A stretch of 64,000 bases of DNA from Shigella phage ESh27: the sequence record ON528737; one strand, 5' to 3'. Position 1 is the first letter of the stretch. Every line of letters starts with the position of its first letter. Below, piece after piece: positions 4,687 to 52,206 of the stretch. A program made the translations under genes and the position numbers. The notes beneath the pieces are model-generated. The model was given only the letters and a program-made list of their open reading frames with translations. It was not told where the DNA came from and searched no databases.

Positions 4687-6653
4687 TGTGAAATAGGCTC
4701 CAAATCTATGGTTAAATATTGTGGACGTAAGTCATTTTCAAATACAATTAATGACCCGTCTTTAGTAAAGATAACATCATCAGCTGGGTCTGAATAGAGT
4801 TCAATAGTTTGAACTTCAAACCTATCAGATGTTAAATCAATTTTAGCTATATTCCAATAAATTGAATCAGCCGGATAATTTACTTCACCTATAGAGTAAT
4901 ATTTGTTTCTTCCGTCCGTAACATGAAGTTTATTAAAATCGTCACCAGTATATGGTTGAATATAAGCATTTTCCATAACGTCGCCATCTGCAAACGGGCC
5001 AATGATAACTTGTCCAATGCCACGGTCATTTCTATCTGAACCTACAATGCGAACATCGTATTTAATGGTAGCTTCCGTTTCAGGGTCAACGCGTAAACTA
5101 TCAAATGAAAACACGTTAGATTCTAATGTTCTATCTTTAATCTGGTTATTGTATTTAATACCTGTTTCAGGTGTTTTGTAGAAGTTCTGTACCTCGCGAA
5201 CCATTTGAATAGTCGCAGATGAACCAATGATAGAAATGTCTGCGTCATCGACATACGTTAGCATTTTAGATTTTGCGAATGACGAGTTAAAAATTTCCAC
5301 GTCTTCAATATAATACCGGTCGATTTTATTAATAATTTGGCCTTCTAACCATTGTTCAGATTCCTGTAATTTGTTCAATGCATATGTAACGCGAATATTC
5401 ATTTTAATAAACAAATAATCAGGAGAAATAACAACAGGAGTTATCGTCCCTAAGTTATACTCATTAAGATAATTTTTAATATCGTCTCGTTGGACGGAAG
5501 TCAAATATAACCCAGACTTAGGTTTAGCAGCAATAAATGCGTACCCAGGCTTAGATGAATCCGTAAATGTCTGAACCGCTTGAATAATAGAACCAAATCG
5601 TTCAGAGACGAATGTGTCGTAATCGGTCGCTGTCACACATCGTTGTTGAGTTTCACGTTTAATTGTACCTAATTCACGGATACGTTCAATATCTTCAGGG
5701 TCGCCACCGCCATCCGCACCAACGAAGTCAGGGTTATTACTTGGGTTTTCATTAATTCCAATAACTGTGATATTAGCTAATGTATCAGCATAAGAGAATC
5801 CTACTGCACCATTTGCTTCAGCACCATTAGTAGAAATATATTCAATTACTATTTTAGAACCCTGGACAGGTTTAAGGCCGCCAATGTAGTTAGATGTTAA
5901 AGCACCTTCTGACGTGTTAATAGAGATTTCACCTTCACCAAAATAAAATTCAGTGTTCCCGTCAACAGTTTCTCGCATATAATAAATGGTTGAAGTAGAA
6001 CCAGCATGAACCATCGATTTGCGAGTCCAGTTAATCCATTCTGCTCCGTCAACATACAATTTAACCAAATTACGGTCAATGTTCTTATCACGAATAATGA
6101 TAGGTTTTAATTTATCAAATGTTAATTCAGTACGAACAATACGTCCCTGAGCTAACCTAAGACGTGGGAAATATTGATTATTTTTGTCTTTAACTACAAT
6201 GACGTCTTCAGTGGAAACAAAGTTATATGGATTTACAGAAGTACCTTTAGCATACGCCAGGAAACGAGTACCACGTGGAATAGTGATATAGTTTCTATTT
6301 AATGCATCCGTACATGTGAGCATAATTTCTGTTTGTGCTGCCGATTTAGATGCAGGCAGATATCCATTATCCTGAGCCGCTTGTACAACGGAACTGCGCA
6401 AGTTAGCAGTACGCATAAAGCTTTCATACACTGCACTATTACTGAACTGTTGGATATAAAGAGTATTATATGCTAAAAGGTCACACAATACGTTTAAACG
6501 CGAACCTTCAAAATCATAATCAAGAAATTCGTTCTGTCCATTGAGCCATTCGATTATATTTGTTTTAATTTCGGCAAATGTGCCCCCGATAAAAATTTCG
6601 GGAATAGCATTCGCCGTTCTGACTAACTGATAATTTACAGGAGTGTTTGCCAT
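4683..6653 (-). CDS. 6: baseplate wedge subunit gp6
   Basis: Start set at internal MANTPVNYQ (T4 gp6 N-terminus); ORF track extends 19 codons upstream. Confidence 0.88.
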   Translation of the reverse strand: MANTPVNYQLVRTANAIPEIFIGGTFAEIKTNIIEWLNGQNEFLDYDFEGSRLNVLCDLLAYNTLYIQQFSNSAVYESFMRTANLRSSVVQAAQDNGYLPASKSAAQTEIMLTCTDALNRNYITIPRGTRFLAYAKGTSVNPYNFVSTEDVIVVKDKNNQYFPRLRLAQGRIVRTELTFDKLKPIIIRDKNIDRNLVKLYVDGAEWINWTRKSMVHAGSTSTIYYMRETVDGNTEFYFGEGEISINTSEGALTSNYIGGLKPVQGSKIVIEYISTNGAEANGAVGFSYADTLANITVIGINENPSNNPDFVGADGGGDPEDIERIRELGTIKRETQQRCVTATDYDTFVSERFGSIIQAVQTFTDSSKPGYAFIAAKPKSGLYLTSVQRDDIKNYLNEYNLGTITPVVISPDYLFIKMNIRVTYALNKLQESEQWLEGQIINKIDRYYIEDVEIFNSSFAKSKMLTYVDDADISIIGSSATIQMVREVQNFYKTPETGIKYNNQIKDRTLESNVFSFDSLRVDPETEATIKYDVRIVGSDRNDRGIGQVIIGPFADGDVMENAYIQPYTGDDFNKLHVTDGRNKYYSIGEVNYPADSIYWNIAKIDLTSDRFEVQTIELYSDPADDVIFTKDGSLIVFENDLRPQYLTIDLEPISQ

Positions 6654-11861: not shown

Positions 11862-12596
11862 ATGGAGCTAATCTTTTTAAGCGGCATCAAACGTAGTGGT
11901 AAAGACACTACTGCTGATTACATCAATTCAAACTTTAAATCCATAAAATATCAATTAGCATATCCAATTAAAGACGCTCTAGCAATAGCTTGGGAGCGTA
12001 AACATACCGAAAACCCTGATGTATTCACCGAGTTGAAATATGAATACTTTGAAGGCATTGGATACGATCGTGAAACACCATTAAATCTCAATAAATTGGA
12101 TGTTATTGAATTAATGGAAGAAACGCTAATTTATTTACAACGACAATACCTGCCAATTAATGGTGTTAACGTATTATCATCACTAGAAGGTGGATATTCA
12201 TATCTAGATATTAAACCGTACGAAGCCCTGCGTGAAGCTATAAATAATATCAACGACACATGGTCGATCCGCCGTCTTATGCAAGCCCTCGGTACGGATG
12301 TTGTCGTTAATTTATTTGACCGTATGTATTGGGTTAAGCTTTTTGCATTAAACTATATGGATTATATTGGAAGTGATTTCGATTACTACGTTGTGACCGA
12401 TACACGACAAGTCCATGAAATGGAAACCGCTAGAGCGATGGGTGCTACAGTTATTCATGTGGTTCGCTCTGGTACGGAATCCACTGATAAACATATTACA
12501 GAAGCTGGGTTGCCTATTGAAGAAGGCGACTTAGTTATTACAAACGACGGCTCGTTAGAAGAGCTTTATTCTAAAATTGAAAAAATCTTAAGGTAA
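11862..12596 (+). CDS. 1: deoxynucleoside monophosphate kinase gp1
   Basis: 244 aa; LIFLSGIKRSGKDTTADYI P-loop and ...GATVIHVVR...LVITNDGSLEEL match T4 gp1. Confidence 0.92.
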   Translation: MELIFLSGIKRSGKDTTADYINSNFKSIKYQLAYPIKDALAIAWERKHTENPDVFTELKYEYFEGIGYDRETPLNLNKLDVIELMEETLIYLQRQYLPINGVNVLSSLEGGYSYLDIKPYEALREAINNINDTWSIRRLMQALGTDVVVNLFDRMYWVKLFALNYMDYIGSDFDYYVVTDTRQVHEMETARAMGATVIHVVRSGTESTDKHITEAGLPIEEGDLVITNDGSLEELYSKIEKILR

Positions 12597-18280: not shown

Positions 18281-18288
18281 AAATAATG

Positions 18289-18318
18289 ATGTACAAACAC
18301 CAAGGATGGTGATACTAT
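18289..18318 (+). promoter_or_regulatory. early promoter (variant -35, TACTAT -10, CACCA/TGGTG repeat)
   Basis: Same downstream ATCAACTAC...GAGGAG leader as other cassettes. Confidence 0.45.
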
Positions 18319-18347
18319 AGACTTATCAACTACAGAGGAGAAACAAA

Positions 18348-18575
18348 ATGGCTAAAGTTAGTATTGATGTCGTTGATTATGAATACACCGAAGAAGTTAT
18401 TCGCAACCGACACCCTGAAGTTCGTATCGATTCAGTCCAAGATTCCAAGTTCTGGACAACTGAGCTTAATCTGAGTGGTCCTTATGAAGCTGTTAAGAAG
18501 TTCATGGTTGAAGAATATTGCGAAGGCATGCACCCAGAAGACGCCAAGTTTTATGTCAATTTGATTAAAAAATAA
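18348..18575 (+). CDS. hypothetical protein
   Basis: 75-aa ORF after GAGGAGAAACAAA. Confidence 0.6.
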   Translation: MAKVSIDVVDYEYTEEVIRNRHPEVRIDSVQDSKFWTTELNLSGPYEAVKKFMVEEYCEGMHPEDAKFYVNLIKK

Positions 18576-36190: not shown

Positions 36191-36229
36191 AGACCTATCG
36201 AAACGAAATGAGTAAATTTGGAGAATAAA

Positions 36230-37210
36230 ATGTTCAACGTTCAAATCAAAAAAGGTATCTATCGTAATAACGAAATCTCTGGTTCTTATGTTGCCACAAA
36301 GACATGGTTCCCGGCAAAGCTTAATCCTGAATGTTCCCACTTAGGTGACGGTAAAATTTTCGTTATGATTGATGGTTCTGAACGTGGAGTATGGGTCTTC
36401 AAATCAGACATCGTAATGGAAGGAGTTGAGACATCACCAGTTGCAGTTATTGAAAGCGCTGAAGATATGAAAACTCGTATCAACAAACGCTTTAAAGTAA
36501 TGAACATGATGACGAATGGCATTATCGATGGCAAAATTCGTTCACTCATTATTTCAGGTGCAGCAGGTATTGGTAAGACGTATTCTCTGGATAAAGCACT
36601 TAATAATGCTAATGATAATGGTTTCATCAAATACAAAAGCATTAATGGCAAAATCTCTGGTATTGGCCTTTACGAACAACTTTGGCTCAACCGTGATGCA
36701 GACAGCGTTCTCTTAATCGATGACGTTGACGTATTCTCAGATATGGATATCTTGAACCTTCTTAAAGCAGCATTAGATACTGGCGATAAACGCAAAGTTT
36801 GCTGGAGCACTGCATCATCTTATCTTGATGATAAGGGTATCGATAAAGAATTTGAGTTTGAAGGTACTATCGTTTTCATTACAAACGTTGATATCGATAA
36901 AGAGTTAGAACGCGGTTCGAAACTTGCTCCACACCTTCAAGCTTTAGTATCTCGTTCAGTGTATTTGGACCTTGGAGTACACTCTAATGAAGAGATTATG
37001 GTCCGAGTTGAAGATGTAATATTATCTACTGACATGATGCAGAAACGTGGTCTGACTGATGCTGAAACGTATAAAGCATTGTCCTGGATGAAGGCTAACA
37101 TATCTCGTCTTCGCAATGTATCATTACGTACGGCTCTTTATGTAGCAGATTTTATTTCAACTGATAAAGACGGTTGGGAGGAAATCTCCGAAGTAACTTT
37201 ACTGAAATAA
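36230..37210 (+). CDS. AAA+ family ATPase
   Basis: Walker A GAAGIGKT, Walker B VLLIDDVD, sensor-1-like FITN; 326 aa. Confidence 0.7.
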   Translation: MFNVQIKKGIYRNNEISGSYVATKTWFPAKLNPECSHLGDGKIFVMIDGSERGVWVFKSDIVMEGVETSPVAVIESAEDMKTRINKRFKVMNMMTNGIIDGKIRSLIISGAAGIGKTYSLDKALNNANDNGFIKYKSINGKISGIGLYEQLWLNRDADSVLLIDDVDVFSDMDILNLLKAALDTGDKRKVCWSTASSYLDDKGIDKEFEFEGTIVFITNVDIDKELERGSKLAPHLQALVSRSVYLDLGVHSNEEIMVRVEDVILSTDMMQKRGLTDAETYKALSWMKANISRLRNVSLRTALYVADFISTDKDGWEEISEVTLLK

Positions 37211-37694: not shown

Positions 37695-38222
37695 ATGAAC
37701 GCTAAAGATATTTTCAACCTGGTAAATTATAACGACGGTAAATTTAAATCTGAAGCACAAAGCAAGTTCTTTAATGACGTTGCTTATGGTAACGAGATTA
37801 CCGTGGACGGAGGTCAGATTTTCAAATCTCGCTGGAATTGGATTGTTATCATCGATTCGATTGGAATTGTGGAAGTCTACAAAAACACTAACAAAAAACG
37901 TACATTATTCTGGTCTCGTGAAACTAACGAGCAGTACAAAAAGGATAAAGCATCTCGTTTATCCAAAGTAACCAAGGAAGATATCGAGTTTATCAAGAAA
38001 GATATCGAGATGTACGAAAATTTAATCGCTGAAGACCAGGCAGTACTCGATAAGTTTGATGAAATTAAAGCTTCTCGTGAAATCCCTGACTTCATGAAAG
38101 AAACAGTAAACGAACGATACGCTCTCACTTCAGAACGTATTGCAAACTATACAAAACAGAAATCAGAACGTATTAGTACTCTTCGGAAATTTGAAGAACG
38201 TTTAAAGACGGTTCACGCATAA
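37695..38222 (+). CDS. hypothetical protein
   Basis: 175-aa ORF after CTGGAGG. Confidence 0.6.
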   Translation: MNAKDIFNLVNYNDGKFKSEAQSKFFNDVAYGNEITVDGGQIFKSRWNWIVIIDSIGIVEVYKNTNKKRTLFWSRETNEQYKKDKASRLSKVTKEDIEFIKKDIEMYENLIAEDQAVLDKFDEIKASREIPDFMKETVNERYALTSERIANYTKQKSERISTLRKFEERLKTVHA

Positions 38223-38284
38223 ACGCTTTACCCAAGGACGGGTTATAATGGTTTTGAGTTCCAATTCAATCTGAGGAAATAGTT

Positions 38285-39280
38285 ATGAGCATTACATCTG
38301 ATGCGGTAAAACATGAAATTAACGGTTTATGTGCTTCACAGATTAAAGTGTGGTTTAAAGACCATAACGATCGCAGAGCACTTAATTATGAGCAAATTGC
38401 TATCCAAGTTCATCAATTACTGACTAGTAAATTTGATTTTCATATGCCGTCTGAAATCTATACTAATCTGCCGCGAGCACTTATTAAAGCGTGTAAAGGT
38501 TATGGAAAATCAATGGCTGATGGAATCTTCAGCGCGCTGAATAAACTTAACGTTCTGTCGATGATTAACTCTAACAACATCCTGCGTAATCTAGGACGTA
38601 CTGATTTGTTCGGTCGTGAACAGTGTAAAATGCCTTTGAAATGGATCGTTGCTCATCTTAACGAGAACCAAACACGTTTTATGGCTGTAACAGCACGTTT
38701 ACAAATGGGCCTAGATCGTCAGATGAACTTTAAAACTCATCCACGTTATTCAGGTTCAACAGACTTTTATAAATGCGAGCTTCAAAAGGTCGGTGGCAAA
38801 ACTGTCTTAGTAGTTCGTGTAACGTTTGAAGGACGACGTCAAGGATATTTTGACATAATCGGCTCTGGACTTAAACATTGCGGATTTATCGACGAAGTTG
38901 ATATCAAGCGAGACGGCATTGGATACCGTATTGGATATGTTTGTACTCTTAAAGAAGAGATTTCAGGACCAGCACCAGGACTAAAAGACGTTAGATATAA
39001 AGACGAGCTCGTCGAAGAAATAAAAGAAGTTGAATATGATATCAACCAAGAAGATGCTCTTAAAGACCTTATTGATGAACTGAACCAAGACGTTATTCCG
39101 GTTCAGAAATTTGAATCAAAACATGCTGAGCAAATCAAATACTTTGAAGCTTTGATTAACGAACTTAATGTAACTATTCAACAGACCGACGATGAAATCT
39201 CACGATTGGCCGGATTGAACGGCAAAAATAAAACAGAACGAGCTAATCTTATTCAAGTAGTAAAACTTCTTAAGGAATGA
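38285..39280 (+). CDS. hypothetical protein with C-terminal coiled coil (triplet member 1)
   Basis: 331 aa; last ~60 aa heptad-like. Confidence 0.6.
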   Translation: MSITSDAVKHEINGLCASQIKVWFKDHNDRRALNYEQIAIQVHQLLTSKFDFHMPSEIYTNLPRALIKACKGYGKSMADGIFSALNKLNVLSMINSNNILRNLGRTDLFGREQCKMPLKWIVAHLNENQTRFMAVTARLQMGLDRQMNFKTHPRYSGSTDFYKCELQKVGGKTVLVVRVTFEGRRQGYFDIIGSGLKHCGFIDEVDIKRDGIGYRIGYVCTLKEEISGPAPGLKDVRYKDELVEEIKEVEYDINQEDALKDLIDELNQDVIPVQKFESKHAEQIKYFEALINELNVTIQQTDDEISRLAGLNGKNKTERANLIQVVKLLKE

Positions 39281-39309
39281 TGTACAACCAAGGATGGTTG
39301 GAGTATAAT
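39281..39309 (+). promoter_or_regulatory. early promoter cassette (core ACAACCAAGGATGGTTGGAGTATAAT)
   Basis: 26-bp core repeated at 40304-40329. Confidence 0.45.
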
Positions 39310-39335
39310 AAATTTTTCAACATGAGGAATATAAA

Positions 39336-40295
39336 ATGGCTCCTATTACACGTAGAGAACTTATCAAAGAATTTACCTCGAACGCATATACCCCAGGACC
39401 TAATCCTATCCGTATGCCTGTAAAGACACCTGAAGAGATTGAGGAAATCTGTTCATATTATGGGATTAATTCTCGTAAGTTTACTCAATTTGAATGTGTT
39501 ACTAACACACCCGTTAAAGAGTTCATTAAAAATGGTGAGTTCAGCCGTTTACTGGCCAAACAGAAACTTCGTAATTTTTGTATTGGCGGTTATGGACAAT
39601 ATTTCGCTAAGCAGTTCCGGAATAACCTTAACAATCTGATGGCCATTGCTTCTCGTATTCGTCCTCAAGCAATTAACATGAAACATTTGAAATATACTTA
39701 CGATAAGTTGGAAATCATGGTTATCAGTGAGAACGAGTTCACTCTTACGTATAAACCTAAGAATGATAACGTTGCTCGTGTATTCCACCAAGCGTTGGAA
39801 GTTTTAGGTGATAATATCCACGAGATTAAAGCAATTTATTCTCGTGAGCTTAATATTATCGACGTTATCAAGAATAAGGGCCATATCGCTATCCAGGCTC
39901 GTGTATCTATTGGTAAAAAGGTTCCTGCGCCATGGTGGCACAAAGACTCTGAATACTATCAAAATCTTAAAAAGGAAAATGCATTGTTTGAAGGCAATAT
40001 TACAGCAACACCAGTCGGTAATGCAGAGGTTCTAGGCGCATATTCTCCGGCACAATCTGGTATGTTTAAAGGTTTGCCAAATGTGTGCAAACTGTCGGCA
40101 GTAAAACTAAATGTTTCTAATGACCTTCTTCCGGCTGAAGATTATCATTACAATCAAATCAAGGCTACTGTAGACCAACTGTCTGCTGAACTTGATAAGG
40201 CACAAGCTAAGCTTCGTGATGCTCAACAGGTGGTGACCAATCTCCAGTTGCAGTACTCTAAACTTTTTAACGCAATGAATGCATTAAAATCATAA
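39336..40295 (+). CDS. hypothetical protein with C-terminal coiled coil (triplet member 2)
   Basis: 319 aa. Confidence 0.6.
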   Translation: MAPITRRELIKEFTSNAYTPGPNPIRMPVKTPEEIEEICSYYGINSRKFTQFECVTNTPVKEFIKNGEFSRLLAKQKLRNFCIGGYGQYFAKQFRNNLNNLMAIASRIRPQAINMKHLKYTYDKLEIMVISENEFTLTYKPKNDNVARVFHQALEVLGDNIHEIKAIYSRELNIIDVIKNKGHIAIQARVSIGKKVPAPWWHKDSEYYQNLKKENALFEGNITATPVGNAEVLGAYSPAQSGMFKGLPNVCKLSAVKLNVSNDLLPAEDYHYNQIKATVDQLSAELDKAQAKLRDAQQVVTNLQLQYSKLFNAMNALKS

Positions 40296-40299
40296 ATCA

Positions 40300-40329
40300 G
40301 TTTACAACCAAGGATGGTTGGAGTATAAT
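40300..40329 (+). promoter_or_regulatory. early promoter cassette (GTTTAC / TATAAT), copy of 39281 core
   Basis: GTTTAC 40300-05, TATAAT 40324-29. Confidence 0.5.
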
Positions 40330-40357
40330 GAATCTATCTTAACGAGAGGAAAATATT

Positions 40358-41302
40358 ATGACGCGTTCACATTACATTGAATACTTTGCCGGTCTTATCG
40401 CTAACGTTCGTGCCCAGCGCGCCGTTGGTGCACTAGGATTTGATGTTCCACACCGAGATGTAGTAAGTGGTATTCTTCGCGATTTTGGTACATACACAGG
40501 CCAAGAAAACCATATCTGTAAAGATACTCAGAATGCGTATTCTCATTCATTAGGGACACTGCTTCAATGGTTCAAACGTTCTCGTTTATTATCTTCTACT
40601 GTAGCTCGCGATAACATTAAAAACTTTATGAAGCCGAGCTTTATTAAATCTGTGACATCTAAAACCGATTTGGTTGAATTCACTATTGTTAATGATGTTA
40701 AAAAGGCTCATTTGGCCGATTGGTTATCTACCATTCCTGAAACTAAATTTGCCGATAAATTTGCTTGTGAATTCAACAACCAAGTGAATATGCTTTTTAA
40801 ACATTCTCGTAAATTATTCACAGGCGGTGATGGTCGTACAAATAAAGTTCATGTTAAAGATTGGGTTACTGCAGTATTCAAACCAACCGGTAATGGTAAC
40901 GCATCATTATCAATTGATATCCAGGTTCCTTATTACTACTCACGTAATCTCGGTACCATGAAAGCCGAAGAAATTAATAAGCACAACAAAACCGTTCGTT
41001 CATTGTCTTATAAACTCCTTGTGATGTTACAGACTATGGATGTTGTTGAAATGTTTGACGAAACCGAAGATAACGGTTCAATGTTATTCAGTTCTCGAAT
41101 TCGAATTAAACTGAAGAACCCTAATGTGTTTAAGCCTATTAAAGAACCTAAAGCAGAAAAGGTCGATATCATGGCTGAAGAACGTGAGTACCTCAAATCT
41201 CGTCTGAAAGAAGTCGAAGCCCAGATTGCAGAACAAACTAAATCGTTAAAAGCTCTGAATGCGAAAGCTGACGGTTTACGAAATGCCATTGAGGTGTTAT
41301 AA
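40358..41302 (+). CDS. hypothetical protein with C-terminal coiled coil (triplet member 3)
   Basis: 314 aa. Confidence 0.6.
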   Translation: MTRSHYIEYFAGLIANVRAQRAVGALGFDVPHRDVVSGILRDFGTYTGQENHICKDTQNAYSHSLGTLLQWFKRSRLLSSTVARDNIKNFMKPSFIKSVTSKTDLVEFTIVNDVKKAHLADWLSTIPETKFADKFACEFNNQVNMLFKHSRKLFTGGDGRTNKVHVKDWVTAVFKPTGNGNASLSIDIQVPYYYSRNLGTMKAEEINKHNKTVRSLSYKLLVMLQTMDVVEMFDETEDNGSMLFSSRIRIKLKNPNVFKPIKEPKAEKVDIMAEEREYLKSRLKEVEAQIAEQTKSLKALNAKADGLRNAIEVL

Positions 41303-41607
41303 TGAACTTACGTCTTTTAGAGGATATTGATATGAACACTAATCACAGCTTAGTTAAGTTTATTGATGATAGTTCAAAGATTGAATTTGTTCAGCGAGAT
41401 AAAATCCACGGTGAAGAAGAGTTCGTTCCTCCAGCATGGAACGAAATAATGAAAATGGTTGAACGACGTGAAAATGCTGCCAAATCGGCAGCAAAACATC
41501 CATGTCCGGAATGTGGAACTATCCAAGTCCAATTGGTTAACTGGACCACTGATAACTTGAAATTGAAATGCCGTAAATGCTTCCACAAATTTGAGAGAAC
41601 ATTATAA
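41302..41607 (+). CDS. zinc-ribbon protein
   Basis: CPECG...CRKC four-cysteine motif. Confidence 0.55.
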   Translation: MNLRLLEDIDMNTNHSLVKFIDDSSKIEFVQRDKIHGEEEFVPPAWNEIMKMVERRENAAKSAAKHPCPECGTIQVQLVNWTTDNLKLKCRKCFHKFERTL

Positions 41608-42020
41608 TGAGATATAGCCTTCGTTGTTTTATCGCAGCTTTAGTTTTTGCTGTTATTCCATTCATTTGGAACAGCCAGAATACTTACATGGAAACTAAAG
41701 TAATTCCTGTGGAGGTAGTGGAATTAATCTCAGGCCAATCTACAGGAAAATATTCTAAATTAGAATTTATTGCAGTCTATAAAGACGAGCAAGGACGAGT
41801 TTTTGACAGGCATGTATCACCGTCATTTTATACGCTTCTGAATAAAGGTGATACGATAGCTATAGAAATTCGTGAGATGGATATTCAACAAAATAGTAAA
41901 GATAACCTGATTTGGTTCTTTGGTACAGTGTTGTTGGTTTCTATCTGTATCACAGGTTTTATTACATGTATTGTATTGGGTGTTAATTGCTTAATTGACG
42001 AAAGGAAAAATAATGTTTAA
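41607..42020 (+). CDS. membrane protein
   Basis: N- and C-terminal hydrophobic helices. Confidence 0.55.
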   Translation: MRYSLRCFIAALVFAVIPFIWNSQNTYMETKVIPVEVVELISGQSTGKYSKLEFIAVYKDEQGRVFDRHVSPSFYTLLNKGDTIAIEIREMDIQQNSKDNLIWFFGTVLLVSICITGFITCIVLGVNCLIDERKNNV

Positions 42021-42967: not shown

Positions 42968-43441
42968 ATGTTATTATCAGGCGCAAAATATAAAGAAGAA
43001 AAACAAAAATTTTATGATGCACAGAACGGTAAGTGTCCTATTTGCCGCCGTGAATTAGACTCTGATGTTCAAGGTAACCATCTTGACCACGACCATGAAT
43101 TAAACGGGCCAAAAGCCGGTAGAGTTCGTGGATTACTCTGTAATCTGTGCAACGCAGCAGAAGGTCAAATGAAGCATAAGTTCAACCGTTCCGGTTTGAA
43201 AGGTCAAAACGTTGATTACTTAGAATGGCTTGAAGCTCTTCTTGCTTATTTGAAACAAGATTATTCTGATAATAATATCCATCCTAATTTTGTTCCGGAT
43301 AAAACTAAAGAGTTCTCAAGACTAGGTAAAGAGGAAATGATGACCGAGATGCTTCAAAGAGGATTTGAATATAATGAATCTGATACTAAAACACAATTAA
43401 TAGCTTCATTCAAAAAGCAGCTTAGAAAGAGTTTAAAATGA
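42968..43441 (+). CDS. 49: endonuclease VII (Holliday junction resolvase)
   Basis: 157 aa; ...CPICRREL...HLDHDHELNGPKAGRVRGLLCNLCNAAEG... matches T4 gp49. Confidence 0.92.
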   Translation: MLLSGAKYKEEKQKFYDAQNGKCPICRRELDSDVQGNHLDHDHELNGPKAGRVRGLLCNLCNAAEGQMKHKFNRSGLKGQNVDYLEWLEALLAYLKQDYSDNNIHPNFVPDKTKEFSRLGKEEMMTEMLQRGFEYNESDTKTQLIASFKKQLRKSLK

Positions 43442-45255
43442 AAATTGAAAAAGAAATTGAAGGATTAATTTATAAAACTAATAAAGACCTTTTAAACGAG
43501 AATGCTAATAAAGATTCTCGTGTTTTTCCAACTCAACGGGACCTTATGGCTGGTATTGTGTCTAAGCACATTGCCAAAAATATGGTCCCGTCTTTTATTA
43601 TGAATGCGCATGAAAGTGGAATTATCCACATGCATGATATTGATTATTCTCCTGCTCTTCCATTTACTAATTGCTGTTTAGTCGATTTAAAGGGGATGCT
43701 TGAGAATGGTTTTAAATTAGGCAATGCTCAAATCGAAACGCCTAAATCAATTGGTGTTGCTACTGCAATTATGGCACAAATTACTGCACAAGTTGCTTCC
43801 CATCAATACGGCGGAACGACTTTTGCTAATGTAGATAAAGTACTTTCTCCTTATGTTAAACGCACCTATGCAAAACATATTGAGGACGCAGAAAAATGGC
43901 AAATCGCTGATGCGTTGAATTATGCTCAATCTAAAACAGAAAAAGACGTATACGATGCATTCCAAGCTTATGAATATGAAGTAAATACTCTCTTTAGTTC
44001 AAATGGACAAACGCCTTTTGTAACAATTACATTTGGTATGGGAACCGATTGGACTGAACGAATGATTCAGAAAGCAATTCTGAAAAATCGGATTAAAGGT
44101 CTTGGACGTGATGGGATAACTCCTATTTTCCCTAAACTTGTTATGTTCATTGAAGAAGGTGTTAATCTTTATAAAGATGATCCAAATTATGATATTAAAC
44201 AACTTGCGTTAGAATGTGCAAGCAAAAGAATGTATCCTGACATCATTTCGGTTAAGAATAATAAAGCTATTACTGGTTCTTCAGTTCCAGTTTCTCCAAT
44301 GGGTTGCCGTAGTTTCTTGAGTGTGTGGAAAGATTCGACCGGTAATGAAATTCTTGATGGACGTAATAATCTAGGTGTTGTAACGCTGAATCTTCCTCGC
44401 ATCGCGTTAGATTCTTATATTGGAACACAGTTCAATGAACAGAAATTTGTTGAGCTATTTAATGAACGAATGGATCTGTGCTTTGAAGCCTTGATGTGCA
44501 GAATTAGTTCTTTAAAGGGTGTTAAAGCAACTGTAGCTCCTATTCTTTACCAAGAAGGTGCATTCGGTGTTCGTCTTAAACCTGATGATGATATAATTGA
44601 GTTATTTAAAAACGGTAGAAGTTCAGTGTCTTTAGGATACATTGGTATTCATGAATTGAATATTCTTGTTAGTCGTGATATTGGACAAGAAATTTTAACT
44701 AAAATGAATGCTCATCTTAAACAGTGGACTGAAAGAACTGGATTTGCTTTTAGTTTATATTCGACTCCTGCTGAAAACCTTTGTTATCGCTTCTGTAAAC
44801 TTGATACAGAAAAATACGGAAGTGTAAAAGATGTTACCGATAAAGGCTGGTACACTAATAGTTTCCACGTTTCAGTAGAAGAAAATATTACTCCGTTTGA
44901 AAAGATTTCTCGTGAAGCGCCATATCATTTCATTGCGACAGGTGGTCACATTTCTTATGTTGAACTTCCTGATATGAAAAATAACCTAAAAGGTCTTGAG
45001 GCTGTCTGGGATTATGCTGCACAACATTTAGATTATTTTGGTGTTAATATGCCAGTGGATAAATGTTTTACATGCGGAAGTACTCATGAAATGACTCCTA
45101 CTGAAAACGGATTTGTTTGTTCAGTTTGCGGAGAAACTGATCCTAAAAAGATGAACACTATAAGAAGGACGTGCGGTTATTTGGGAAATCCGAACGAACG
45201 CGGATTTAATCTCGGTAAAAATAAAGAAATCATGCATAGGGTTAAACACCAATGA
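43438..45255 (+). CDS. nrdD: anaerobic ribonucleoside-triphosphate reductase
   Basis: 605 aa continuous ORF; C-terminal zinc ribbon and glycyl radical motif RRTCGY. Confidence 0.92.
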   Translation: MKIEKEIEGLIYKTNKDLLNENANKDSRVFPTQRDLMAGIVSKHIAKNMVPSFIMNAHESGIIHMHDIDYSPALPFTNCCLVDLKGMLENGFKLGNAQIETPKSIGVATAIMAQITAQVASHQYGGTTFANVDKVLSPYVKRTYAKHIEDAEKWQIADALNYAQSKTEKDVYDAFQAYEYEVNTLFSSNGQTPFVTITFGMGTDWTERMIQKAILKNRIKGLGRDGITPIFPKLVMFIEEGVNLYKDDPNYDIKQLALECASKRMYPDIISVKNNKAITGSSVPVSPMGCRSFLSVWKDSTGNEILDGRNNLGVVTLNLPRIALDSYIGTQFNEQKFVELFNERMDLCFEALMCRISSLKGVKATVAPILYQEGAFGVRLKPDDDIIELFKNGRSSVSLGYIGIHELNILVSRDIGQEILTKMNAHLKQWTERTGFAFSLYSTPAENLCYRFCKLDTEKYGSVKDVTDKGWYTNSFHVSVEENITPFEKISREAPYHFIATGGHISYVELPDMKNNLKGLEAVWDYAAQHLDYFGVNMPVDKCFTCGSTHEMTPTENGFVCSVCGETDPKKMNTIRRTCGYLGNPNERGFNLGKNKEIMHRVKHQ

Positions 45256-51980: not shown

Positions 51981-52206
51981 TTATGAAATCCATCGTCATG
52001 AATTTAGTATTGGCGACGGTTATATTGGTATCGTTGAATGGACTGAGAATTACGAGGAATCAACTCCTCGTTTCTTTGGAACAATGTATGTTACATGTGA
52101 GTACGCACCAGGTGTTGTTATGTATGCAGAACTAGATGAATATTTTGCTGATAGGGATGACATGTTAAAATATGTAGAGGACTTCATTCGAAGAGAATAC
52201 ATATGA
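51967..52206 (+). CDS. hypothetical protein
   Basis: ATG at 51967. Confidence 0.5.
   Translation: MTKTDYEIHRHEFSIGDGYIGIVEWTENYEESTPRFFGTMYVTCEYAPGVVMYAELDEYFADRDDMLKYVEDFIRREYI

Follow-up and report, generated by a model that had tools for sequence, protein, structure and literature searches.

Three tandem nrdC-type genes of Shigella phage ESh27 appear to be whole-length paralogs of one superfamily and are candidate anti-defence genes

Some genes of the nrdC region of phage T4 and its relatives act against bacterial immunity. Srikant et al. 2022 (PMC9391042) have shown that a deletion mutant infects Dsr1 cells again when T4 nrdC.5 is provided in trans. In the same region of T4/T6, 49.2 inhibits OLD (PMC13096335) and nrdC.1 inhibits Septu (bioRxiv 10.1101/2025.11.20.689424). 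The genes nrdC.1 to nrdC.6 can be deleted from T4 (PMC9825161), and nrdC.3, nrdC.4 and nrdC.6 are uncharacterised early ORFs. Upstream of them lies PnrdC.7, a middle promoter dependent on MotA and AsiA with a mapped start at T4 coordinate 53325. In SPbeta-like phages, DSAD1 is reported to bind and block DSR2, a defence-associated sirtuin NADase. The hyperplastic regions of T4-type phages are also known for PeSL (promoter-early stem-loop) cassettes, which shuffle ORFans (Arbiol et al. 2010, PMC2839356; Comeau et al. 2014).

The window analysed here is a stretch of 64,000 nucleotides from Shigella phage ESh27 (sequence record ON528737), an RB69-like (Mosigvirus) T4-type phage with 96–97% identity to Mosigvirus genomes. 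As an earlier note on this DNA had stated, it contains three consecutive genes encoding 331, 319 and 314 aa, found as ORFs on the + strand at 38285–39280 (gene 1), 39336–40295 (gene 2) and 40358–41302 (gene 3). Their counterparts in T4 are nrdC.6, nrdC.5 and nrdC.3, and the order nrdC.10-.9-.8, array, nrdC.2-nrdC is the same in T4, Gaprivervirus and Dhakavirus. T4 has an nrdC.4-type copy that ESh27 lacks, and the nrdC.7-like membrane gene lies downstream of the array in ESh27 (41607–42020) but upstream of nrdC.6 in T4. The position of the array is kept in at least six genera while the copy number varies, with four copies in T4, three in Mosig-, Gapriver- and Dhakavirus, and one in Marfa- and Kanagawavirus. 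A superfamily HMM found no fourth paralog elsewhere in the 64-kb window.

Gene 1 belongs to the nrdC.6 family (precomputed Pfam tag PF26899; PHROG 2257, E 1.6e-127) and has 38% identity to T4 nrdC.6 across 127 aa (29% across 270 aa). Gene 2, of the nrdC.5 family, is a member of Pfam DUF7235 (PF23882; PHROG 2351), which it matches with 393 bits (cut-off 30, E 1.1e-117) over profile positions 1–307 of 307; T4 nrdC.5 scores 421 bits (E 5e-126), and the RB69 ortholog of gene 2 carries the name NrdC.5. The two proteins have in common the full-length DUF7235, the position in the nrdC array and a C-terminal hinge with coiled coil. However, they are only 24–25% identical, and of the two genes only gene 2 is immediately preceded by an early promoter of its own. 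Gene 3 is of the nrdC.3 family (precomputed Pfam tag PF26897; PHROG 1435), with 56% identity to T4 nrdC.3. Pfam, NCBIfam and PADLOC searches matched neither gene 1 nor gene 3 and added no further domain to gene 2. Taken together, genes 1–3 have 24–56% identity to T4, against 77–99% for most flanking genes; the flanking genes outside this range are the small accessory ORFs (nrdC.9-, nrdC.2- and nrdC.7-like, 34–50%). Compared with three other Mosigvirus genomes, dN/dS is 0.02–0.23 (gene 1 0.02–0.14), similar to flanking genes. The three ORFs are thus real genes under purifying selection, with no gene-wide positive selection within Mosigvirus.

The N-terminal regions had been said not to look alike. 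In pairwise comparison this holds, as BLASTP among the three proteins gives nothing significant (E 0.2–5), and profiles were therefore needed. Word-indexed homolog searches were patchy, returning four clusters for gene 1 and, for a seven-sequence alignment, no families beyond those of nrdC.3 and gene 1, so the subfamily sets were built from annotated phage genomes. Paralogy was then assessed by profile–profile comparison (local hhalign) with reversed and column-shuffled profiles as controls, and at this level the N-terminal regions are homologous. The nrdC.3 family aligns to the nrdC.4 family with a score of 80 (E 6e-11, 234 columns) and to the nrdC.5 family with 54.5 (E 4.5e-7, 262 columns), while nrdC.4 against nrdC.5 gives 47 (E 8e-6, 270 columns). 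The nrdC.6 family, represented here by gene 1, aligns to a merged nrdC.3/.4/.5/Marfa-type profile with a score of 70.5 (E 2e-9, 213 columns), covering gene 1 residues 74–331. Reversed profiles score 13–19 and the best of 40 column shuffles 15–23; overall, the controls give 12–23 against 40–80 observed. An unrelated 256-aa neighbour, used as a negative control, gives E values of 0.14–0.66. In Marfa- and Kanagawavirus, the single-copy member is preceded by a 256-aa gene, which was ruled out as part of the family (E > 0.1).

An intermediate form exists in Klebsiella phage Marfa, where a 315-aa protein combines an nrdC.3/4-like N-terminus with an nrdC.5-like tail, and this single-copy form of Klebsiella and Enterobacter phages belongs to the same full-length superfamily as nrdC.3/.4/.5/.6. 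For all three ESh27 genes the similarity spans both N-region and tail and is above the controls, although identity between subfamilies goes down to 13–20%. Judged by these profiles, genes 1–3 are whole-length, anciently duplicated tandem paralogs of one superfamily. The superfamily is restricted to T4-like phages; when the DUF7235 profile was run exhaustively as an HMM against 1.84 billion representatives, only nine clusters matched. While the gene family was already known, the literature search found no earlier description of the paralogy of nrdC.3/.4/.5/.6, which is thus not previously described in the literature searched.

The proposed shared plan starts with a basic, helical N-region carrying the motifs F-K-x-S-R-x-L-S...A...L-x-N-F-G and F...F..N....L...A.RL..G. 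Next come a small unit made of a beta-hairpin, a helix and a second beta-hairpin, then a linker that is variable and rich in indels, and the P-x-E-x-x-H hinge; an amphipathic helix of 45–55 residues forms the C-terminus. The motifs and their order are the same in all subfamilies, and the end of the helix is conserved (...L..A...LK). AF2 models of gene 2 (from a 50-sequence alignment) and gene 1 (from five sequences) have pLDDT values of 48.7 and 47.8 between them; the order of secondary-structure elements is alike in the two, both of low confidence, and at pLDDT 48–49 the common topology is only suggestive. Fold searches with models of pLDDT about 48 are likewise weak. Foldseek of BFVD returned only the same families and uncharacterised 300–370-aa proteins of other T4-like phages (E 1e-4 to 1e-3, TM 0.2–0.35), and against the PDB there was nothing at E <= 1e-3, the best matches being designed proteins and DesK with TM <= 0.31.

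The coiled-coil tails, put at about 60 residues in the earlier note, are strong in genes 2 and 3, with a length of about 45–52, and weak in gene 1. In gene 2, the hinge (LPAEDYH) and coiled-coil helix comprise residues 263–319 (40122–40292, + strand); the tail has about 6.5 heptads without interruption, with the a/d string EYIVLLALAVLYLML, and its heptad a/d score of 0.92 (35-residue windows) was reached by 0 of 300 shuffles. AF2 predicts a single helix at 267–318 with pLDDT 65–84, the most confident part of the model. Gene 3 is similar, with hinge (KPIKEPKAE) and coiled-coil helix at residues 261–314 (41138–41299, + strand, also seen in the alignment), the a/d string VMRLLVIQLLALIL and a score of 0.81 (0 of 300 shuffles as high). 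Both genes have the four to five or more uninterrupted heptads in a helix by which a coiled coil was defined. The hinge (IPVQKFESKH) and helical tail of gene 1, placed by subfamily alignment at residues 271–331 (39095–39277, + strand), have heptads broken at GLNGKNK, low-confidence AF2 helices at 273–294, 302–308 and 316–330, and a score of 0.54 that is not above shuffles (68 of 300 as high). A sequence-profile search of the PDB with the superfamily profile retrieved only coiled-coil chains (Smc, DotF, APC, prefoldin, GCN4), all through C-terminal positions of the profile. From these predictions, the C-terminal helix would most likely form a parallel coiled coil, giving a dimer or trimer, and the proteins may thus oligomerise through it.

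On balance, the array is probably a set of tandem, fast-diverging anti-defence paralogs that oligomerise via the C-terminal coil. Since a T4 family member disarms Dsr1, genes 1–3 are most likely host-range (anti-defence) genes; the proteins would be dispensable host-range factors. All three would be made before replication, gene 1 from a candidate MotA-dependent middle promoter plus read-through, and genes 2 and 3 from their own strong sigma-70 early promoters. The paralogs may differ in the host immune protein, or the allelic variant of one, that they neutralise through their diverged N-regions, and we assume that this target is bound directly; the model case would be T4 NrdC.5 against the SIR2/TPR NADase Dsr1. 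As gene 2 is so distant from T4 NrdC.5, the anti-Dsr1 activity itself may not be conserved. DSAD1, from another phage group, offers a parallel to the proposed mechanism, with DSR2 rather than Dsr1 as target; the likeness is one of function, and no relation in sequence or structure is claimed. The earlier suggestion of an effector family with a common docking or oligomerisation module holds in part, in the homology to the anti-Dsr1 gene nrdC.5 and in the C-terminal helical module, which is real.

The proteins could instead be dimeric, basic nucleic-acid-binding factors for host takeover or regulation, joined by the coil, with the anti-Dsr1 effect of NrdC.5 being indirect (e.g. if the trigger came at a different time or level). 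The N-regions are basic, with a pI of 9.6–9.7, as would also suit nucleic-acid binding; over the N-terminal helical and beta parts the pI is 9.0–9.7 and the net charge +2 to +8, against neutral tails. Pre-replicative expression agrees with this reading too, and comparable T4 early proteins exist, such as MotB. Nevertheless, no DNA- or RNA-binding family was matched in Pfam, NCBIfam or PDB sequence profiles, and dispensability, variable copy number and extreme divergence between close phages are typical of host-range genes and not of regulators. The sole tested member, T4 nrdC.5, has a defence-specific phenotype, and overall we regard nucleic-acid binding as an unlikely main role. The proteins being basic (pI 7.6–9.4), the idea that they are DNA mimics was rejected.

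Much less probable is a reading based on the earlier note, in which three unrelated globular effector domains would each have gained, by domain shuffling, one and the same coiled-coil module for docking or oligomerisation. Besides the lack of significant pairwise matches, it could draw on the hinge and helix being slightly the best conserved part between subfamilies (19.5% vs 13–17%), on the tail being the only part through which the DUF7235 profile and the Marfa-type protein are linked at library-wide significance, and on tail-only ORFs of 77–83 aa in metagenomes (P0108, P0110). However, the profile alignments include the N-regions, with scores 3–5 times any reversed or shuffled control, and run nearly end to end (262 and 213 columns), contradicting a fusion of unlike N-terminal domains to a common module. 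The identical motif order in all subfamilies and the matching predicted secondary structures of genes 1 and 2 also speak against shuffling, which is disfavoured.

Each gene had also been credited with its own early promoter, and this is the case for genes 2 and 3. The gene 2 promoter (39281–39309, + strand; TGTACA, 17 nt, TATAAT) has 10 of 12 sigma-70 consensus positions and the gene 3 promoter (40301–40329, + strand; TTTACA, 17 nt, TATAAT) has 11 of 12. An identical core common to the two had been given as 26 bp; it is 27 bp long (TACAACCAAGGATGGTTGGAGTATAAT) and occurs twice in the window, against zero expected. Upstream of gene 1, no sigma-70 site is called and there is no sigma-70 -35 element. 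The promoter there (38221–38249, + strand) has the box AAACGCTTTA at 38221–38230 and a -10 TATAAT at 38244–38249. By the published rule for MotA boxes, (a/t)3TGCTTtA at 12±1 bp from a -10 TAtaaT without a -35 element (PMC2988021), the box fits at 9 of 10 positions, with a C where the consensus has T (cGCTTTA), and the spacer is 13 nt. In T4, the orthologous element predicts a start at coordinate 53325, the mapped start of PnrdC.7, and for this reason the gene 1 promoter is classed by its sequence as a MotA-type middle promoter and not an early one. In both phages the element follows nrdC.8 and has the layout GCTTTA-hairpin-TATAAT, but PnrdC.7 drives nrdC.7-nrdC.6 in T4 while the ESh27 element drives the nrdC.6-type gene directly.

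All three promoters have a covarying 4–5 bp hairpin with the loop AAGGAY in the spacer. For gene 1 it is ACCC/GGGT with loop AAGGAC (38230–38243), and for gene 2 CAACC/GGTTG with loop AAGGAT (39285–39300), followed by GGAG (39300–39303); gene 3 repeats the gene 2 hairpin (40305–40320), again followed by GGAG. No + strand terminator is predicted between the genes. The arrangement resembles PeSL cassettes, which combine a repeated intergenic strong sigma-70-like promoter and stem-loop with flanking accessory ORFs and recombination footprints, and genes 2 and 3 do have the repeated sigma-70-like early promoter between accessory ORFs. In PeSL, however, the stem-loop is an adjacent GC-rich terminator, often GGGG...CCCC, whereas the ESh27 hairpin lies inside the -35/-10 spacer, has no T-run and in one copy sits in a MotA-type middle promoter. 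The exact label of classical PeSL was rejected, as there is no adjacent stable terminator stem-loop.

Traces of recombination are seen in phage moha, which has a 78-nt non-coding copy of the junction between the gene 2 3'-end and promoter upstream of gene 2, 91% identical. The 66-aa ORF of moha at this place is a small membrane protein, the family remnant being the non-coding DNA after that ORF. Compared with moha, dS is 0.47–0.55 for genes 1 and 2, 0.22 for gene 3 and 0.11–0.20 for flanking genes, and the raised values point to a mosaic history of genes 1 and 2. That these genes are ORFan cassettes, selfish or neutral and of little benefit to the phage, kept by promoter repeats that promote duplication and exchange, would agree with the repeats flanking the genes, the junction copy in moha, the known shuffling of ORFans by PeSL-type cassettes (PMC2839356) and the deletability of T4 nrdC.1-6, but is hardly probable given dN/dS values of 0.02–0.23 as in flanking genes, the constant array position in at least six genera and the benefit of T4 nrdC.5 demonstrated on a Dsr1 host (PMC9391042).

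If the array does consist of anti-defence paralogs, a bolder and distinctly tentative extension would be that nrdC.3-.6 are expandable immune-evasion cassettes, each directed against a different sensor (Dsr1/Avs7-type TPR proteins, other NADases). The promoter DNA might then serve as a homology patch for duplication or swapping, and, in RNA that reads through, the hairpin and the near-consensus RegB/S1 cleavage site after it, GGAGUAUAAU, might separate the cistrons and cap the 3' end of the upstream mRNA. The covarying hairpin inside the promoters may be a small element, peculiar to this family of genes, that acts in regulation or recombination, and this can be tested. The comparison corrects the picture of unrelated effectors with a common tail. 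Few counters to sirtuin-based defence are known, and T4 nrdC.5 is among them; if it forms one superfamily of common architecture with nrdC.3, nrdC.4 and nrdC.6, three more "dark matter" genes of T4 and their RB69-type counterparts would become candidate anti-defence proteins, and the conserved and variable regions of the superfamily would provide a rational map toward the target-binding surface.

The neighbourhood of the three genes is the T4 'nrdC region', and the 3.7 kb around the array share 96-97% identity with many Mosigvirus phages (RB69-like T4-type phages) of Escherichia and Shigella. The gene order starts with an nrdC.10-like P-loop ATPase (36218-37210), then nrdC.9-like and nrdC.8-like ORFs, followed by gene 1 (38285-39280, 331 aa), gene 2 (39336-40295, 319 aa) and gene 3 (40358-41302, 314 aa), the three ORFs being exactly as an earlier note had described them. 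Next come an nrdC.2-like zinc-ribbon ORF (41302-41607), an nrdC.7-like membrane protein of 137 aa (41607-42020), the NrdC thioredoxin, endonuclease VII and NrdD. Compared with three other Mosigvirus genomes, genes 1-3 have a dN/dS of 0.02-0.23, a range into which the flanking genes also fall; all three are genuine genes. Gene 3 shares 56% identity with T4 nrdC.3, and gene 1 shares 38% with T4 nrdC.6 across 127 aa. Gene 2 shares only 24-25% identity with T4 nrdC.5; both are full-length matches to Pfam DUF7235 (E 1e-117 for gene 2, 5e-126 for T4 nrdC.5), and the RB69 ortholog of gene 2 carries the name NrdC.5. The fourth T4 gene of similar size, nrdC.4, is absent in this phage, and Gaprivervirus and Dhakavirus have the.6,.5 and.4 types.

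Several neighbouring genes deserve mention in their own right. The nrdC.7-like protein is 41% identical to T4 nrdC.7 and lies downstream of the array, adjoining nrdC, whereas the T4 gene is located between nrdC.8 and nrdC.6; modules have been shuffled inside this region. The nrdC.10-like gene encodes a P-loop NTPase (GAAGIGKT) with weak matches to AAA_22, AAA_16 and STAND; it is highly conserved (77% identity to T4 nrdC.10, dN/dS 0.04-0.05). Here nrdD (43438-45255) is a single uninterrupted ORF of 605 aa, in contrast to T4, where a group I intron with I-TevII interrupts the gene.

The N-terminal regions had been described as unlike each other, and at the level of single sequences this is correct: pairwise BLASTP of the three proteins finds nothing significant. 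Profile comparison gives a different picture. Subfamily alignments, drawn from T4, three other Tequatrovirus-type genomes, Mosig-, Gapriver- and Dhakavirus genomes and database matches, were compared by hhalign, with reversed and column-shuffled partner alignments as calibration. The scores are 80.0 for nrdC.3 against nrdC.4 (E 6e-11, 234 columns), 54.5 for nrdC.3 against nrdC.5 (E 4.5e-7, 262 columns) and 47.1 for nrdC.4 against nrdC.5 (E 8e-6, 270 columns), and the nrdC.6 family of gene 1 aligns to the merged rest with 70.5 (E 2e-9, 213 columns). Reversed controls score 13-19, and the highest among 40 shuffles is 15-23. A 256-aa neighbour in Marfa-like and Kanagawavirus phages, used as a negative control, gives E 0.14-0.66. 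The gene 1 alignment spans residues 74-331 and reaches the C-terminus, and in the superfamily alignment the motifs and their order are common to all subfamilies, with 13-20% identity between subfamilies in each region (slightly highest in hinge and tail). The AlphaFold2 models of genes 1 and 2, both poor, share the order N-terminal helices, beta-hairpin, helix, beta-hairpin, disordered linker and C-terminal helix. We conclude that genes 1-3 are paralogs over their whole length. The alternative that different domains were joined to a common tail is disfavoured by near full-length profile alignments scoring above the controls. The family is effector-like, as had been proposed, but made of paralogs rather than of shuffled domains.

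The DUF7235 profile, run as an HMM exhaustively against 1.84 billion representative proteins, finds only nine clusters. One protein from this search, P0109 (315 aa, Klebsiella Marfa-like phages), combines an N-terminus like that of nrdC.3/.4 (MTRNE..., FFKHSRILSSIMARKRLSNFG) with a tail like that of nrdC.5, and is a natural intermediate. Both this protein and its Kanagawavirus relatives (335-338 aa) occur in single copy, just upstream of nrdC.2. The annotated T4 nrdC.6 (275 aa) is apparently truncated by a frameshift at about 51996-52140 (L001, the T4 locus from NC_000866, about 11997-12140), and the next frame continues ...FRLSGLSSKAKSEREKLIKIVDLLKS to a stop, matching the conserved family tail; in the related phages JEP6 and SholemSchwarzbard a 295-aa ORF is intact. 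In Bp7 (L006, 6962) and vB_EcoM_RZ (L007, 6962), the annotated nrdC.4 starts (ATGGAGTAT...) fall within the promoter (GGATGGAGTATAAT) and are probably mis-called; the downstream ATGAC(T/A)CGT, as in LQ5 and VR7, is likelier.

Coiled-coil tails of about 60 residues had been claimed for all three proteins. The tails are real, with a length of 45-55 residues, and the coiled coil is convincing in genes 2 and 3 only. When a/d hydrophobicity in the best register was scored in 35-residue windows against 300 shuffles per protein, gene 2 (0.92) and gene 3 (0.81) were matched by none of the shuffles, while the score of gene 1 (0.54) was matched by 68. A single helix (267-318) is the best-scored part of the gene 2 model; in the gene 1 model the tail helices are broken. 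Searched against the PDB, the superfamily profile matches only coiled-coil chains (Smc, DotF, APC, prefoldin, GCN4 chimeras), through C-terminal positions only. Two further products of the representative search, P0108 (83 aa) and P0110 (77 aa), are stand-alone ORFs with just the linker end, the P-x-E-x-x-H hinge and the coiled-coil tail of the family; they may represent either fragments of genes or mini-proteins in their own right.

Each gene had also been assigned its own early promoter, two of them with an identical 26-bp core. This holds for genes 2 and 3, which have canonical sigma-70 promoters (39281-39309 and 40301-40329) with 27 rather than 26 identical bases in common (two copies in the window against 0 expected). 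Gene 1 has no canonical sigma-70 promoter; instead, AAACGCTTTA is found 13 nt upstream of TATAAT, in agreement with the rule for MotA boxes in T4 middle promoters (Hinton 2010, PMC2988021). In T4 the orthologous element, CGCTTTATACCAAGGATGGTATAAT, is located between nrdC.8 and nrdC.7, and a start 7 nt past its -10 falls on T4 coordinate 53325, the same as the mapped start of the middle promoter PnrdC.7. The mapped start is that of T4, and the gene 1 element is the ortholog of this promoter.

All three promoters contain the decamer CCAAGGANGG, of which the 64 kb window has four copies where 0.2 would be expected. It is part of a family-specific hairpin inside the spacer between -35 (or MotA box) and -10, at 38230-38243, 39285-39300 and 40305-40320; the fourth copy (decamer at 18300, hairpin at 18296-18313) is upstream of a 75-aa ORF. 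The element is also found in T4 upstream of nrdC.7, nrdC.4 and nrdC.3, and in the compared loci L005-L011. In T4, Mosig-, Gapriver- and Dhakavirus, wherever a promoter immediately precedes a family member, or nrdC.7-nrdC.6 in T4, its spacer contains the element, and members without their own promoter (e.g. T4 nrdC.5 and nrdC.6) do not have it. The stem is 4-5 bp with a loop A(A/G)GGA(T/C), and its variants are compensatory (AACC/GGTT, AGCC/GGCT, ATCC/GGAT, TACC/GGTA, ACCC/GGGT, CCAC/GTGG). Among 12 distinct sequences, 93% of cells are paired against 61% in shuffles, with double changes at 4 of 5 pairs; shifting the partner by one column lowers pairing to 38-47%, and 8-mer copies elsewhere in the loci have no stem. 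It is worth noting that the stretch 18281-18575, with the fourth promoter (TGTACA..CACC-AAGGAT-GGTG..TACTAT) and its ORF (18348-18575, MAKVSIDVVDYEY...), is far from the nrdC array, and that this ORF is unrelated.

In early-type copies the hairpin is followed by GGAGTATAAT (given also as GGAGUAUAAU), as RNA a candidate RegB/S1 site close to the consensus GGAGRAYARAA (PMC1702504), with its GGAG at 39300-39303 and 40320-40323. Like PeSLs (PMC2839356), these cassettes are promoters that recur around accessory ORFs together with a stem-loop; the neighbouring terminator hairpin by which PeSLs are defined is absent. Phage moha (L008) has a 78-nt non-coding copy upstream of gene 2 (4919-4994 versus 5909-5986, 91% identical), duplicating the junction of the gene 2 3' end (..NAMNALKS and stop) and the downstream promoter, a footprint of recombination between promoter cassettes.

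What the proteins do is best approached through T4 relatives. Srikant, Guegler and Laub (2022, PMC9391042) found that T4 clones that had lost a block of non-essential genes do not infect ECOR17, that infection is restored by deleting dsr1 in the host or by supplying T4 nrdC.5 in trans, and that cloned dsr1 protects K-12. Dsr1, a SIR2 NADase, has a TPR sensor that reportedly recognises the phage major capsid protein (PMC12803255). Nearby in T4/T6, gp49.2 inhibits OLD (PMC13096335) and nrdC.1 inhibits Septu (bioRxiv 10.1101/2025.11.20.689424), and T4 nrdC.1-6 can be deleted (PMC9825161). The array itself behaves like host-range genes. Its copy number is 1 to 4 across genera, and genes 1-3 are 24-56% identical to T4 versus 77-99% for most flanking genes, with small accessory ORFs (nrdC.9-, nrdC.2- and nrdC.7-like) also low (34-50%). 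Against phage moha, dS in genes 1 and 2 is 2- to 4-fold the flank value, and in gene 3 (0.22) it is near the flank range. Searches of Pfam, NCBIfam, PADLOC, PDB sequences and fold libraries give no indication of what the N-regions are. They are basic (pI ~9.6), which leaves a nucleic-acid-binding role as the main rival explanation. Given the anti-defence literature and the host-range-like behaviour, binding to host immunity is the most likely mechanism: an early- or middle-expressed oligomeric protein would bind a host immune protein through its diverged N-region.

The anatomy described in the earlier note was thus largely correct, its interpretation half right. Genes 1-3 fall into a T4 gene set that is already known but poorly characterised, and of which a single member has a defined function. 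To this set, the present analysis adds paralogy, a common architecture and a covarying promoter hairpin, none of which we found described in the literature searched.
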